A stretch of 36,444 bases of DNA from UHGV virus genome UHGV-0373079; one strand, given 5' to 3'. A program made the translations under genes and the position numbers. This document shows positions 4,911 to 18,582 of the stretch, piece after piece. Every line of letters begins with the position of its first letter. The stretch's first letter is position 1. The notes under the pieces are model-generated. The model did no database searches. It was given only the letters and a program-made list of their open reading frames with translations, and was not told the DNA's origin. This stretch comes from a virus.

Positions 4911-5104
4911 TTACTATGAATGACGATCCTTATGACTACTTAGATGCTGATTATGAAGAATATTTAAGTAAGGAAGAGGTTAACAACCGTTAGGCTTTTT
5001 ATATTGCCTTCTTACTGCTTACAGGCGTTAAAGAGAAAGCTGTTTCGACTGATGGGCGTAACCTATTAATTTCGATTGGTCACGTAATGACTGGAGGGTT
5101 TAAC

Positions 5105-5746
5105 ATGAAAGAGAAAAAACACTTATTATTACCAATGGATTTACAATTATTTGCTGAGAATCCTAATTCTAGTGATACGGTTAATCCTGAAACAACGCCG
5201 GCAAATGATACTCAGGATAAAGAAACCGATAATCCAGAAGATAAAGAAAAAGCAAAAACAAAAGATAATGGGAAAAGCTTTACTCGTGAGGACGTCGCAA
5301 AAATGATTGCAGCAGAAACAAAAAGAGCTGTAGAACAAGCGAAAACTCAATGGGAAAAGGAGAAATCTTATGAACAAATGACAGCGGAAGAACGCATCAA
5401 AGCAAAAGAAAAAGAGGCGTCTGATAAAGAAGCTTTAGCTGAGAAAAAAGAGCAGCAGGCACAAGCTCGTATCGATCGACTAGAGCGCGCAGAATCTGTT
5501 CGTAAGGATTTATCCGAAAGTGGTCTAACTGATTATGTTAGCGCTACTTATGCTGATTTACTTTTAGTAAAAGACAATGATGAGGATACCAAAAAAGCGA
5601 CAGATGCAATGAAAAAAATTATTGCGGCAGCTCGTGAAGGAATCCAAAAAGAATTGTTAAAAGGCGACACTGTAAATGTTGCAACTGCAACAAAGAACGA
5701 AGCAAATTGGCGAGATAATTTAGCTAAAAATTTAAAAAATAAATAG
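5105..5746 (+). CDS. Capsid scaffolding protein (DUF4355-like)
   Basis: The N-terminal LLLPMDLQLFAE motif, a charged coiled-coil-rich body, and position just upstream of the capsid gene. GGAGGG lies 7 nt before ATG 5105. Confidence 0.65.
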   Translation: MKEKKHLLLPMDLQLFAENPNSSDTVNPETTPANDTQDKETDNPEDKEKAKTKDNGKSFTREDVAKMIAAETKRAVEQAKTQWEKEKSYEQMTAEERIKAKEKEASDKEALAEKKEQQAQARIDRLERAESVRKDLSESGLTDYVSATYADLLLVKDNDEDTKKATDAMKKIIAAAREGIQKELLKGDTVNVATATKNEANWRDNLAKNLKNK

Positions 5747-5759
5747 GAGATGAACAATT

Positions 5760-6665
5760 ATGCCAGTTATTTTAGATAGTAAAGATGTAAAAGCAATTGA
5801 CAAAGAATTTGCGGCAGGCTCTCAAGTATGGGAATTGCTAAAAGGTGGAGCGTCTGGTGTTACTGAAGCAGACTTTGTAGGGGCACGTGAAGTACGAATT
5901 AATAAAATGAAGGGTTTTACAGCAAGTGATTATAAACGTAATGAAGAAAACAAACGGAATAAAATTGATGTAAGTAAAGAAACTGTAAAGCTTGAAAAAG
6001 AACGTTGGATGGGCTATGACCTAGATTCATTAGATCAATCGGAAAATGCCAGCTACGAAGTACAAGCCGTCGTCGAAGAACACACTCGGTTAATTTCTAT
6101 CCCGGAAAAAGATCGTACAGCGATTGAGCGTTTATTAGAAGCAGCTTTTGCTGAACCAGCAGAAGATGATACGGAAGGAAAATACGTAGGGAAAACTGTT
6201 GTTGAAACAATCACCAAAGCGAATGCTTTAACATCTTATGATGAAGCTGAGGCTTATATGACAGATACTGAAGTGATTGGACCGTTTATTATGTTTGTAT
6301 CTTCCGATTACTATAAAGCATTAAAAAATGCTGATGGTGTATCCAAATCATTTAGTACTAACGATATCCAAATTTCAGGAATCAATCGTAAAGTTGAACA
6401 ACTAGACGGATCTGATGCGATTATCCAAAAAGTTGCTAAAAACCGATTACAAGTAGACCCAACGAAAAAAATTAATTATATCTTAGTTCCTTTAAACGTT
6501 TGTTCACCTTTGGAAAAATATAACTCAATTGATTTAATTCCAGCAGCGCAAGATCGTGATGGATATCGAGACACTGTTAAAGGATTAGATTACTATGATG
6601 CAATCGTAATTGAGAAAGCGCGTCCTGCAATTTATGTATCGTATGAAAAAGTAGGATCAAAGTAA
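5760..6665 (+). CDS. Major capsid protein
   Basis: 301 aa directly after the scaffold with a strong RBS (AGGAG). The assignment is by position and size. Confidence 0.7.
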   Translation: MPVILDSKDVKAIDKEFAAGSQVWELLKGGASGVTEADFVGAREVRINKMKGFTASDYKRNEENKRNKIDVSKETVKLEKERWMGYDLDSLDQSENASYEVQAVVEEHTRLISIPEKDRTAIERLLEAAFAEPAEDDTEGKYVGKTVVETITKANALTSYDEAEAYMTDTEVIGPFIMFVSSDYYKALKNADGVSKSFSTNDIQISGINRKVEQLDGSDAIIQKVAKNRLQVDPTKKINYILVPLNVCSPLEKYNSIDLIPAAQDRDGYRDTVKGLDYYDAIVIEKARPAIYVSYEKVGSK

Positions 6666-6724
6666 CATCCCCAACCGTAAAAAATGTTACTCCGACGGAA
6701 ACAGGGGCAATTATTGAAGTGGAG
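6647..6724 (+). other. -1-frame open segment overlapping the capsid stop, encoding ...VTSPTVKNVTPTETGAIIEVE; candidate frameshift extension (FN3 strand A-B-like)
   Basis: The segment has no start codon. It is paralogous to 8617-8709 with mostly synonymous codon differences. A Lys-stop context AAG_TAA allows a tRNA-Lys -1 slip. Confidence 0.45.
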
Positions 6725-6727
6725 TAG

Positions 6728-8104: not shown

Positions 8105-8638
8105 ATGGAAAAAGCAATTCAAGGTAAAAAAATTAAGTTAATGTTTCGACTAACACGTGAACGTGCGACAACAGCAGCGAAGTTGTTAGCTTTAGAAATT
8201 TCACACGAATATAAGTCAGAAACAAAAACAGATACGCAATCAACGAAGGATGGGAATGTTCCTACATCAGGTATGCCGTCAGCGTCTATTGAAATGGAGT
8301 TTTTGCGTACAGGTACAGAAACCTATGATATGTTGAAATATGCATACCGTCATGGCTTAGAAATAGATGTATGGCGCATCAACTTTGATAAAAAAGACGA
8401 GAAAACAGGAAAGTACGAGGCAGAATTTGGCACAGGGTTGCTTGATTCATTTGGAGATTCTGCCGAATCGGATTCAAACTCAAGTATCAAACCTACGCTA
8501 GTATTGAATGGAGATTTAGTTGAAGGTTGGGCGACGGTTGATTCTGATAATGAAGAATTAGCAAAAGCATTCTTCTATGATACTGTTGCAGGTGCGGAAG
8601 CAGAGGAACCAATTGAAAAATATCACCCAAAAAAATAA
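8105..8638 (+). CDS. Major tail (tube) protein
   Basis: 177 aa with an acidic C-terminus. It lies upstream of the Ig-like ORF and chaperone genes. It ends in the A_AAA_AAA_TAA context. Confidence 0.65.
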   Translation: MEKAIQGKKIKLMFRLTRERATTAAKLLALEISHEYKSETKTDTQSTKDGNVPTSGMPSASIEMEFLRTGTETYDMLKYAYRHGLEIDVWRINFDKKDEKTGKYEAEFGTGLLDSFGDSAESDSNSSIKPTLVLNGDLVEGWATVDSDNEELAKAFFYDTVAGAEAEEPIEKYHPKK

Positions 8639-8709
8639 TGGCCCCGAAAGTTGAAAGTGTTACACCTACAACCGACGGGGCAATCGTAAAGATTAAGGAA
8701 GGGGAATAG
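8617..8709 (+). other. -1-frame open segment overlapping the major tail protein stop, encoding KIMAPKVESVTPTTDGAIVKIKEGE; candidate frameshift extension supplying FN3 strands A-B
   Basis: A_AAA_AAA heptamer (8629-8635) sits directly before TAA. The peptide is paralogous to the capsid-end segment. Confidence 0.45.
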
Positions 8710-8711
8710 AG

Positions 8712-9176
8712 ATGCCCGATACGTATAGAATTTATAAAGGTAATGAAAAAGTAGCAGAAAGTGAGAATCCAATCACTCTTGCAGGTCTACAATCTAATAC
8801 TAAATATGAAGCTGGAGCATTTAAGATTGTGCGAGTAAAAGGAAATGAGGAATCTGAAAAAATTCCTATTTCTGAATTTACTACATTGGCCTCAATCGTT
8901 TCGGTAACGGAAGTCACTTTGTCTCCTAAAACTTCTACAGCTAACGCAGGGGTGGCTGGTAGCCGGCAGTTAACTGCAACAGTGACACCAGTAGAAGCGA
9001 CAAATAAAAAAGTATCGTATAAAATTGAGCCAGCAACCGAAGGGCTTGATGTATCAGATTCTGGAAATATCACATGGACAGAAACAGTACCAGCTGGTGA
9101 ATATGTAACCACGGTAACTACAGAAGATGGAAATAAAACAGATACAAACACATTAACATTAACTAAAACAGTATAA
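8712..9176 (+). CDS. Ig-like decoration protein: N-terminally truncated fibronectin type III domain (strands C-G) plus a Big_2 domain
   Basis: Its own strong RBS AAGGAAGGGG. YRIYKGNEK, ITLAGLQSNTKYEAGAFKIVRV and EKIPISEF match FN3 strands C, E-F and G. VTLSPKTSTANAGVAGSRQLTATVTP...VSYKI...G.ITW is a Big_2 signature. Confidence 0.7.
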   Translation: MPDTYRIYKGNEKVAESENPITLAGLQSNTKYEAGAFKIVRVKGNEESEKIPISEFTTLASIVSVTEVTLSPKTSTANAGVAGSRQLTATVTPVEATNKKVSYKIEPATEGLDVSDSGNITWTETVPAGEYVTTVTTEDGNKTDTNTLTLTKTV

Positions 9177-9230: not shown

Positions 9231-9626
9231 ATGGCAGTAAAAATGAAACCTGTAGTAACAATTAACGAGAAAAAATATCCATTGAATTTTGGATTTAAAT
9301 TTTTAAATGAAGTAAAAGCAATAAAACCAGAAGTTGAAGAAGTAGATAATTTTGTGCAGTTGATAGGTGGAATCCAAGACGGAGATGCATTTGCCTTAAG
9401 AGAATTAATTCATGCTGCACTTGCTACTTATGATGATTTGACGACTGAAGATATTGATAATTATTTAGAAACGTCTGATGAGGTTCATAAATTATTTGAA
9501 AATTTTATGATTTTCTTAGAACAAGCACCTCTTACAGCACTTCGTACAAAGAAAGCGAAGGAAGCCATAGAGAAAATCGTGGATCTGATGGAGCAGATGG
9601 ACGTCAACCAAGCGCTCAGTCGGTAG
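9231..9626 (+). CDS. Tail assembly chaperone (gpG-like)
   Basis: 131 aa acidic protein directly upstream of the tape measure. It contains the slippery heptamer. Confidence 0.6.
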   Translation: MAVKMKPVVTINEKKYPLNFGFKFLNEVKAIKPEVEEVDNFVQLIGGIQDGDAFALRELIHAALATYDDLTTEDIDNYLETSDEVHKLFENFMIFLEQAPLTALRTKKAKEAIEKIVDLMEQMDVNQALSR

Positions 9627-10015
9627 AAGACCAAGAGCTAAGTTATGAAGATATAATCGTTGAGTGTTTCCAGTATTTTCCCAACATTACGTTAAAAGAG
9701 ATCGAGCGTATGACACCTTATGAGTTTAGTTTACGAACGAAAGCTGTAAATCTTCGAGCTATTAATGAGGAACGTAAGTTATACGTTAATGCGTTAGCCA
9801 ATCGAATTTTTACGGCTACTGATGATAAAGGTGAAAAATATATTTTTAATGATGTAAAAGATATTTATGATTATGAAAACTTGGAATTAAAAGTTAAAGG
9901 TAAATCTTCATCAGAAGAGCTTGAGAAACTAAATGAAATAACAGAAAATGCGCGTCGATTAGAACAAGCAAGAAAAATAGTTGAGGAAAGGAGGAAAAAA
10001 CATGGGACAGAGTAA
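9500..10015 (+). CDS. gpT-like -1 frame segment of the tail assembly chaperone (G-T fusion by programmed -1 frameshift at A_AAT_TTT, 9500-9506)
   Basis: The -1 frame is open from 9500, exactly at the heptamer AAATTTT, to 10015. The G frame stops at 9626. Confidence 0.55.
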   Translation, partial: KFYDFLRTSTSYSTSYKESEGSHRENRGSDGADGRQPSAQSVEDQELSYEDIIVECFQYFPNITLKEIERMTPYEFSLRTKAVNLRAINEERKLYVNALANRIFTATDDKGEKYIFNDVKDIYDYENLELKVKGKSSSEELEKLNEITENARRLEQARKIVEERRKKHGTE

Positions 10016-18157: not shown

Positions 18158-18379
18158 TTGTCAAATGAAATTGTTGTCGCTGTTATAGGATTAGTAGGCA
18201 GCACAATTGGTGCGTTTATTGGAGTTGTAGCTAGTGCCAATTTGACAGCTTACAGAATTGAACAGCTAGAAAAGAAAGTAGAAAAACATAATGGGGTAAT
18301 TGAAAGAACCTTTAAATTAGAAGGTCGAATGCAAGAAGCGGAACATGACATAATAGAATTGAAAGGAGCAAAAAAATGA
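18158..18379 (+). CDS. Holin-like / XhlA-like small membrane protein (one N-terminal TM plus coiled coil)
   Basis: The N-terminal TM segment is VVAVIGLVGSTIGAFIGVVA. It sits immediately upstream of the holin and endolysin. Confidence 0.45.
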   Translation: MSNEIVVAVIGLVGSTIGAFIGVVASANLTAYRIEQLEKKVEKHNGVIERTFKLEGRMQEAEHDIIELKGAKK

Positions 18380-18582
18380 TTCTACCAGATAAGTACTACA
18401 AGATTATCAAATGGGGCGTGTTAACAGTACTTCCTGCAAGTTCTGTTTTGGTTGCCACACTAGGCAAAGCCTATGGATGGCAGCAAACAGATATGGCTGT
18501 TTTAACTATTAATGCCATAGCAACTTTTTTAGGAGTAGTAACAGGTGTGTCAGCATATAATTTAAAAGACAAGGAGAAGTAA
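18376..18582 (+). CDS. Holin (two-TM, Dp-1/phiLC3-like small holin)
   Basis: 68 aa with two hydrophobic segments and a charged C-terminus KDKEK. ATGA-coupled to neighbouring genes. Confidence 0.6.

Follow-up and report, generated by a model that had tools for sequence, protein, structure and literature searches.

Probable programmed −1 frameshift sites at the ends of the capsid and tail-tube genes of a siphophage, with half of a putative FN3 domain as the added peptide

The virus genome UHGV-0373079, analyzed here as a stretch of 36,444 nucleotides (nt; the window), is a temperate-type siphophage genome with a low-GC Gram-positive host and a standard structural module. Two genes of this module, one for the major capsid protein and one for the tail-tube (major tail) protein, both end with a lysine codon followed directly by a stop codon. 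In both, the −1 reading frame runs on past the stop to encode a short peptide, and the two peptides are related. We argue here, from sequence comparison, that both gene ends are probably programmed −1 ribosomal frameshift sites. Frameshifting appears well supported at the tail site and reasonably supported at the capsid site. Extended subunits would, we infer, be a minority, made at low efficiency.

What the shift would deliver is, of course, a separate matter. The peptides, called tags below, resemble strands A and B of a fibronectin type III (FN3) domain. The rest of such a domain is encoded by a separate open reading frame (ORF), called the acceptor, which begins just after the tail tag.

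The two gene ends

The major capsid gene (5760-6665) appears in the list of ORFs as a 0-frame gene encoding 301 amino acids (aa) and 33.65 kDa; it and all of the features given coordinates below are on the plus strand, except where stated. It lies between a scaffold-like gene and the head-tail connector, and its relatives, at 47-85% identity, occupy the capsid position in phage contigs. Its product finds no match in Pfam. The gene ends GTA GGA TCA AAG TAA. The tail-tube gene (8105-8638) encodes 177 aa (19.85 kDa) and ends CAC CCA AAA AAA TAA. Its product matches Phage_tail_2 in Pfam (E = 4e-13) and is homologous to gp17.1 of phage SPP1 (E = 1.6e-6).

At the tail gene end (8626-8638), a heptamer scan finds two overlapping slippery heptamers of the form X_XXY_YYZ, both in the 0-frame register. 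These are C_CCA_AAA (8626-8632) and A_AAA_AAA (8629-8635), and TAA (8636-8638) follows. An earlier note on this DNA, made from the letters alone, had placed A_AAA_AAA against this stop and TCA AAG TAA at 6657-6665 at the capsid end; both placements are exact. The −1 frame opens 6 codons before the tail stop and reads KISPKK IMAPKVESVTPTTDGAIVKIKEGE to a TAG at 8707-8709, with the tag beginning after KK. This tail tag (8635-8709, TAG included) would add 24 residues, to give a long form of 201 aa and 22.35 kDa, against 19.85 kDa for the normal form (+2.50 kDa). The predicted junction peptides are IMAPK and VESVTPTTDGAIVK. A Shine-Dalgarno (SD)-like stimulator upstream of the tail site was considered and rejected; the closest GAGGA, ending 21 nt before the site, is too distant.

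The capsid site (6659-6665) consists of A_AAG (6659-6662) and TAA (6663-6665), with only three consecutive A (6659-6661) at the stop. Here, the open −1 frame starts 5 codons ahead of the stop, and its translation is KSRIK VTSPTVKNVTPTETGAIIEVE, ended by a TAG at 6725-6727, with the tag beginning after the last K. The capsid tag (6662-6727, TAG included), as delimited by translation and by conservation in the family, would add 21 residues. The long form would have 322 aa and 35.82 kDa, against 33.65 kDa (+2.17 kDa), and VTSPTVK and NVTPTETGAIIEVE as its junction peptides.

Relatives L100-102, with 85% capsid identity, keep both TCA AAG TAA and the tag despite differing upstream codons, and L016 and L017 have TCA AAA TAA at the equivalent site (L numbers denote related loci). 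This agrees with the earlier note, which had read A_AAG plus stop as the place of the slip. A run of five A (6646-6650) was rejected as the conserved site, because the same 85%-identity relatives lack it while having TCA AAG TAA. Also rejected was an SD-like stimulator for the capsid site, where AGGA ends 3 nt upstream, a spacing typical of +1 and not of −1 sites. A perfect 8-bp AU-rich stem, AGUAACAU (6661-6668) with AUGUUACU (6684-6691), overlaps the capsid shift site and its stop; it surfaced as a "terminator-like" match on the minus strand. As it starts inside the slip site, it is unlikely to be a stimulator.

The two tags, of 21 and 24 aa at the 3' ends of the major capsid and tail genes, share 10 of 19 aligned residues. 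Both shift sites are identical, base for base, in an independent assembly (L098, 99.1% identity), and thus are not assembly artefacts. No near-identical DNA was found among GenBank phages, nor an exact 20-mer in GTDB genomes; a scan of GTDB proteins returned distant Big_2 matches only.

Recurrence of the arrangement in related phages

Canonical heptamers fall within the last two codons of 3 of the 36 long plus-strand ORFs of the window; the background of in-frame canonical heptamers is 0.84% per codon. About 90 related loci were gathered, and a motif scan for the peptide gave 122 occurrences, representing 45 distinct cassettes. Of these 45, 41 have the peptide in the −1 frame relative to an ORF of capsid size or tail size, and a shift-prone motif stands 0-1 codons from the stop of that ORF. 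The earlier note had held that both lysine-then-stop sites lead into a conserved peptide, and translation of the −1 frames bears this out. The −1 frame is open, its product is conserved and the site is kept in these 41 cassettes, in L098 and in L100-102.

The motifs near the stop differ from cassette to cassette. They are A_AAA_AAA plus stop (3 distinct cassettes), G_GGA_AAG TAG (6), C_CCA_AAA GNG TAG (7), G_GGA_AAC TAA (1), the non-canonical G_GGG_GAG or G_GGG_GAA plus stop (about 20), and A_AAR, as TCA AAA or TCA AAG before TAA (3). G_GGA_AAG is the heptamer of the lambda G-T shift. Judged from these sequences, chance is exceeded where a slip-prone motif at the stop goes together with a homologous peptide in the −1 frame, a pairing found twice in the window and again in relatives.

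The earlier note had also named an observation that would count against frameshifting, namely relatives in which the A-run has been lost but not the peptide. Such loss is seen. It is always accompanied by another slippery motif or by an in-frame fusion, and the loss therefore does not refute frameshifting.

The commonest class of site, xxG GGG GAG TAA/TAG, occurs in L002, L016 and many of the loci L044-L090 (about 20 cassettes) and is not of the X_XXY_YYZ form. For tRNA-Glu to move from GAG to GGA, it would have to form a G-U pair at the central position. One locus, L084 (about 5900-5930), holds the sole cassette in which a long capsid ORF is apparently +1 relative to the tag. Here the third frame has G_GGA_AAC TAA, pointing to an indel upstream or an error in the assembly.

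A more distant arrangement is seen in L103-L119, with 69% capsid identity. Their capsid genes have C_CCA_AAA GCA TGA/TAA at the end and a CCCCGG/CCGGGG hairpin after it, and the −1 frame adds a HeH/SAP-like domain of 57-64 aa, as in Cps-L of the Listeria phage A118. They have neither tag nor acceptor ORF.

Tags fused in frame are confined to tail genes (phiEf11 type, L037, L100-102); no capsid gene has one, which suggests that the tube, but not the shell, can bear a full set of tags.

Hairpins downstream of the shift sites

Folding predicts a stimulatory hairpin at the tail site (8641-8680), in which GCCCCG pairs with CGGGGC and GUUG with CAAC. It begins 5 nt past the heptamer, within the 5-9 nt at which stimulatory structures are expected. 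Its minimum free energy is −17 kcal/mol, with z = −2.3 against shuffled sequences and z = −2.6 (p = 0.01) against synonymous recodings. At the capsid site, a weak hairpin (6669-6707) begins 6 nt past the shift site, with CCCC (6669-6672) pairing with GGGG (6704-6707) and CCGU (6675-6678) with ACGG (6695-6698). Its position is homologous to that of the strong hairpins of relatives. Thus, of the downstream RNA structure that the earlier note had left to be looked for, the tail part is there, while the capsid part is weak (z = −0.5).

In L100, the homologue of the capsid hairpin has a folding energy of −18.3 kcal/mol (z = −2.6). Past the sites of phiEf11, IME197, L003 and L100, and past the validated site of A118, there are homologous hairpins of −18 to −23 kcal/mol.

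Codon choice within the tags is informative here. The codon preceding a conserved proline has C as its third base in 28 of 31 distinct cassettes, across six amino acids. A conserved glycine is encoded by GGG in 28 of the 31, GGG making up 10% of the glycine codons of these phages. The CCC/GGG core of the hairpin is accordingly kept in 28-31 of the 31, with one compensated U-A pair, in the tail cassette of L060. When each of the 31 was compared with 300 synonymous recodings weighted by codon usage, the natural sequence folded better than its recodings in all 31, with p <= 0.05 in 19. Locus L100 provides a natural control. Its tail tag is in frame, the corresponding codons are CCT and GGT, and the hairpin is gone (−6.6 kcal/mol, z = +0.9). 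The tail hairpin is under synonymous-site selection, held in place by rare synonymous codons.

The RNAalifold consensus contains three invariant C-G pairs only, and neither shift site matches a family in Rfam.

A putative divided FN3 domain

The acceptor ORF (8712-9176) is in the third frame, 2 nt after the tag stop, and encodes 154 aa (16.42 kDa) that comprise a putative FN3 domain lacking strands A-B followed by a Big_2 immunoglobulin (Ig)-like domain. An SD-like sequence that serves it, AAGGAAGGGG (8695-8704), falls within the last part of the sequence that encodes the tag. The first residues of the acceptor protein are MPDTYRIYKG. The 35 homologues that were aligned, which come from Enterococcus, Virgibacillus, Lederbergia and phage contigs and go down to 40% identity, all share a start, M..(F/Y)xIYKG, and this conserved start point is strand C of FN3. 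The Big_2 part matches PDB 7quz (E = 1.5e-18) and lambda gpV.

AlphaFold, given the tail tag fused to the acceptor, returns a two-domain Ig-like fold with a mean predicted local distance difference test (pLDDT) score of 93.6. The first two strands of domain 1 (residues 8-14 and 17-22) come from the tag and are packed in that domain, and a fold search with the model returns tandem Ig/FN3 proteins and Big_2. Pfam tells a similar story for one relative. In L004, the tag PVNVKATPTDTTVSISWE joined to its ORF matches fn3 over profile positions 2-83/84 with 34 bits (cutoff 25), while the ORF alone covers positions 45-83 only. Together with the fusion model, this agrees with the earlier note, which had called the peptide FN3 A-B. 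The window tag plus its ORF scores 15 bits against the same profile (PF00041), below the cutoff of 25 (E = 0.02-0.03), over positions 30-81 only; several family members have precomputed PF00041 matches. In no sense does the extension carry a complete, self-sufficient Ig-like domain. It stops, after 21 or 24 aa, behind strand B, and the rest is a separate ORF.

The same separation holds throughout the family. The tag always ends in a stop, and in every relative the acceptor ATG follows 1-18 nt on, with an SD sequence in the gap. The frame relation of tag to acceptor is 0, +1 or −1 in different phages (−1 in the window), which excludes a conserved second recoding event. Capsid tags without an adjacent acceptor are found; at about 10 loci, it is the capsid gene that has the acceptor behind it, and the tail gene, at a distance of 2.4 kb, bears a tag alone. 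Tags and acceptor nevertheless co-occur, and the capsid relatives that have the HeH extension have neither.

Several relatives vary this theme. In L100 (5818-7228), the tail gene has its tag in frame, no hairpin and two acceptor genes. One encodes an FN3 without A-B and nothing else (60 aa); the other encodes 193 aa, with an FN3 without A-B, another region and a C-terminal HeH motif. In L004 (5870-6000), the capsid gene ends ACT CCC TAA and the textbook FN3 A-B tag, PVNVKATPTDTTVSISWE followed by a stop, is in the +1 frame. This is a CCC_UAA +1 site of the SPP1/Listeria type that brings the same kind of tag. In Staphylococcus phage 3A (L124, 2250-2340 and 4410-4540), the capsid and tail genes both end TTA CCC AGC TAA with the tag in the +1 frame, an arrangement implying, on its sequence, a +1 shift at CCC.

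Phage 3A also supplies protein data. Published matrix-assisted laser desorption/ionization (MALDI) masses of its virions include 23,335 and 15,855 Da. These equal the computed masses, less the initiator methionine, of the unshifted tail protein (23,335 Da) and of the stand-alone acceptor (15,855 Da), so the acceptor orthologue is a separate polypeptide of the virion.

A chain of such parts is seen in the Staphylococcus Kayvirus GH15 (L095, 13428-14836), where three consecutive genes lie outside of the structural module. ORF148 ends, in frame, with an A-B tag (SAPKNVQVTPKEDGADVSAE, then a stop). ORF149 is an FN3 without A-B plus Big_2, and itself ends with a tag (PEAPTDVTVEPGENSADITA, then a stop). 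ORF150 (75 aa) is an FN3 without A-B and nothing else. By MALDI, phages K and 812 have the orthologues of this chain as separate proteins of the virion.

A proposed mechanism

At the tail site, ribosomes on C_CCA_AAA_AAA (8626-8635) would slip back one base, helped by the hairpin at 8641-8680 and possibly also by the slow TAA stop. Reading would resume as ATA ATG GCC CCG and add 24 residues. At the capsid site, the lysine tRNA on AAG (6660-6662), with TAA in the A site, would re-pair on AAA (6659-6661), and reading would resume as GTA ACA TCC CCA to add 21 residues. The products would be a long capsid protein (35.8 kDa) and a long tail protein (22.3 kDa) beside the normal forms.

The tags would then serve as FN3 strands A-B. 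The separately made protein from 8712-9176, FN3(C-G)-Big_2, would complete the fold on them in trans, so that head and tail would both be decorated with the same acceptor protein, and the efficiency of the shift would determine how densely. That this protein docks on the tags by strand complementation is a reading toward which the sequences and models tilt us, with a good deal of room for doubt. With a similar degree of reserve, we suggest that docking of this kind, through a natural split FN3, may be widespread in Firmicutes phages. Strands A-B would be supplied by a −1 shift, a +1 shift or in-frame fusion, cargo that starts at strand C (Big_2, HeH or other) would dock, and the Kayvirus tags could chain successive proteins. 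The tag stop, 2 nt before the acceptor ATG, could even couple acceptor synthesis to shifted ribosomes, although this is speculative.

If the halves do assemble in trans, several features of these phages would be explained: a small Ig-like protein that decorates both head and tail, the same short peptide on two unrelated genes, and the need for a shift at every capsid tag, when some tail tags are fused in frame. Phage display and the engineering of virions in Gram-positive phages would gain a natural pair of peptide tag and acceptor, and the long forms, like the relation between these genes, would be shown to escape annotation pipelines systematically.

Weighing the alternatives

Frameshifting within this family has some experimental background. 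In the Enterococcus phage phiEf11, the single gene ORF10, for the major head protein, gives two capsid bands, of about 38 and about 41 kDa, and the authors' proposal was a −1 shift at AAAAAAA that adds 21 aa, together with a stem-loop (Stevens et al., 2016; PMC5221750). These bands, together with the conservation of the frame, the replacement of one slippery motif by another and the tail hairpin, support the earlier note in its reading of programmed −1 frameshifting.

A number of observations weigh against this picture or parts of it. The window holds 44 runs of seven A, against 78.7 +/- 12.6 in shuffles, and such a run alone is unremarkable. The capsid site has no canonical heptamer, only the tetramer A_AAG before its stop, and a single-tRNA slip would be required there. 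The capsid hairpin, at −9.5 to −10.4 kcal/mol, is no better than shuffles and cannot be distinguished from synonymous recodings (z = −0.48, p = 0.28). Covariation across the alignment does not rise above shuffle controls for the full hairpin; this is because the inner stems change register between cassettes, and the recoding tests made sequence by sequence were therefore relied upon instead. The existence of tail genes tagged in frame means that frameshifting is not obligatory for the system. At the tail junction, TAATG could allow a free 23-aa peptide to arise by reinitiation. In phiEf11, the extension peptide went undetected by mass spectrometry (PMC5221750), and the gap between the bands (about 3 kDa) exceeds the predicted 2.1 kDa. 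Last, AlphaFold models the acceptor alone with equally high confidence, and the models thus cannot show that the domain depends on the tag.

One alternative is that no recoding occurs. The −1 ORFs would then be decaying Ig-like remnants, or the 23-aa tail peptide would be made by reinitiation at TAATG, and the proteins would never be extended. The ATG at 8638-8640 does overlap the tail TAA in the classic coupling arrangement, and TAATG recurs in L054 and L055; the phiEf11 mass spectrometry without the extension peptide fits this view too, as does the MALDI list for phage 3A, in which the only tail mass is the unshifted one. Most cassettes, however, have no start codon in the tag frame (GTA ACA in the window capsid gene, GTA GAT AGC in IME197, GTA ACT in the G_GGG_GAG class). 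The tag ORF is open, has a conserved sequence and ends correctly in 45 distinct cassettes that are deeply diverged, among them capsid genes that lack a neighbouring acceptor, and decaying remnants would not retain slippery motifs and hairpins. Further, the in-frame tail fusions show that the tag is meant for attachment, and phiEf11 does have two capsid bands. The absence of recoding is, on this evidence, unlikely. Transcriptional slippage accepts the extension and changes its cause. RNA polymerase would add one A within the A7 of the tail site, putting the tag in frame in a minority of mRNAs. The site is indeed a run of seven A, slippage would lead to the same protein, and the in-frame tail genes of phiEf11 type differ from their shift-requiring relatives by one extra base just before the tag, which marks this stretch as indel-prone at the level of DNA. 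Yet 7 A is short for efficient slippage; the known bacterial cases mostly use 9 or more. Slippage would also be unexpected at the non-homopolymeric G_GGA_AAG, C_CCA_AAA and G_GGA_AAC of homologous cassettes, and at a capsid site with three consecutive A only. Nor would it account for a hairpin at ribosomal spacing that is under synonymous-site selection and vanishes when the tag is in frame. We regard it as quite unlikely.

A last possibility is a second recoding event, either readthrough or another shift, that would join tag and acceptor into one complete FN3-Big_2 tail extension of the kind known from classical Ig-like frameshift extensions. In phages of the IME197, phiEf11 and Kayvirus GH15 type, tag and acceptor do share a frame, separated by one TAA in IME197 and by two stops in GH15, and tblastn aligns straight across these stops. 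Against this stand the frame relation, which is 0, +1 or −1 among the phages and −1 in the window, and the SD sequence and ATG always present ahead of the acceptor, with the same methionine start in 35/35 homologues. Capsid tags occur with no acceptor downstream, the phage 3A acceptor is found at exactly its stand-alone mass without methionine (15,855 Da), and the Kayvirus orthologues are separate virion proteins. A second recoding event is very unlikely. Programmed −1 ribosomal frameshifting at both gene ends is what we prefer to all three.

Other recoding-like sites in the window

Three further places in the window deserve mention. The ORF at 18158-18379 has A_AAA_AAA directly before its stop (18370-18379), overlapping the ATG of the next ORF (18376-18582). 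The scaffold-like gene (5087-5746) ends AAA AAT AAA TAG, with the heptamer A_AAA_AAT two codons ahead of its stop. The tail assembly chaperone pair (9231-10015) consists of the ORF 9231-9626 (Phage_TAC_12) and, in its −1 frame, the ORF 9710-10015, whose frame is open from at least 9539. This is the expected frameshift of G/GT type; no canonical heptamer was seen in the overlap.

Comparison with known systems

The nearest parallel is phiEf11. Its capsid gene ends TCA AAA AAA TAG, followed by 20 nt identical to the tail tag of the window (GCCCCGAAAGTTGAAAGTGT), and the same GCCCCG/CGGGGC hairpin stands there as at the window tail site. In phiEf11, however, this cassette is on the capsid gene, while in the window it is on the tail gene, and the phiEf11 paper draws no connection between the extension and FN3, the tail gene or the Ig-like ORF further on. 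The window offers two further probable cases of a known class of recoding, and comparative backing for the frameshift that was proposed in phiEf11.

Shifts at the ends of capsid and tail genes are, of course, established elsewhere, in the Lactobacillus phage A2 (gp5A/5B and gp10A/10B), the Listeria phages A118 and A500 (Cps-L), PSA and the Bacillus phage SPP1 (gp17.1*) (Atkins et al., 2016; PMC5009743). The −1 shifts of A2, A118 and A500, all siphophages of Firmicutes, act at the 3' ends of the two kinds of gene and yield each protein in two forms, as proposed for the window. The cps genes of A118 and A500 end G_GGA_AAC TAA plus a hairpin, which in A118 lies 5-6 nt downstream. The A2 shift site is C_CCA_AAA, and the 69%-identity capsid relatives of the window use the same heptamer with a hairpin to add a HeH domain, like A118. 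The differences are in the payload and in one site. Extensions in A2, A118 and A500 are whole domains (Ig-like or HeH, 57-85 aa), whereas those of the window have about 20 aa and two strands, and the capsid site of the window consists of A_AAG and a stop alone.

SPP1 gp17.1/gp17.1* provides a homologue of the tail tube with a minority form that carries FN3 material at its C-terminus. There, the shift is +1, at CCC_UAA, and brings a full FN3 in cis; in the window, the shift would be −1 and the FN3 would be split after strand B. Relative L004 resembles SPP1 in having CCC_TAA and the +1 frame, adding the FN3 A-B tag. More broadly, FN3 and Big_2 domains occur on capsid and tail proteins of phages, often added through a 3' frameshift in either direction (Fraser et al., 2006). 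The window differs from these Ig-like extensions in that the domain would be divided between the frameshift extension and a separate gene. In the open-access literature searched, no split FN3, no decoration by strand complementation and no domain divided between an extension and a gene was found.

Completion of an Ig-like fold by the strands of another polypeptide has precedents in the donor-strand complementation of chaperone-usher pili and in engineered split-domain tags. Strand completion in trans is the principle proposed here for tag and acceptor. There is no homology, and the window would supply two N-terminal strands, not one C-terminal strand. The recoding itself, then, is of the known class represented by A2, A118, A500, SPP1 and phiEf11. 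The unusual part is its payload, apparently half of a domain whose other half is a separate virion protein.

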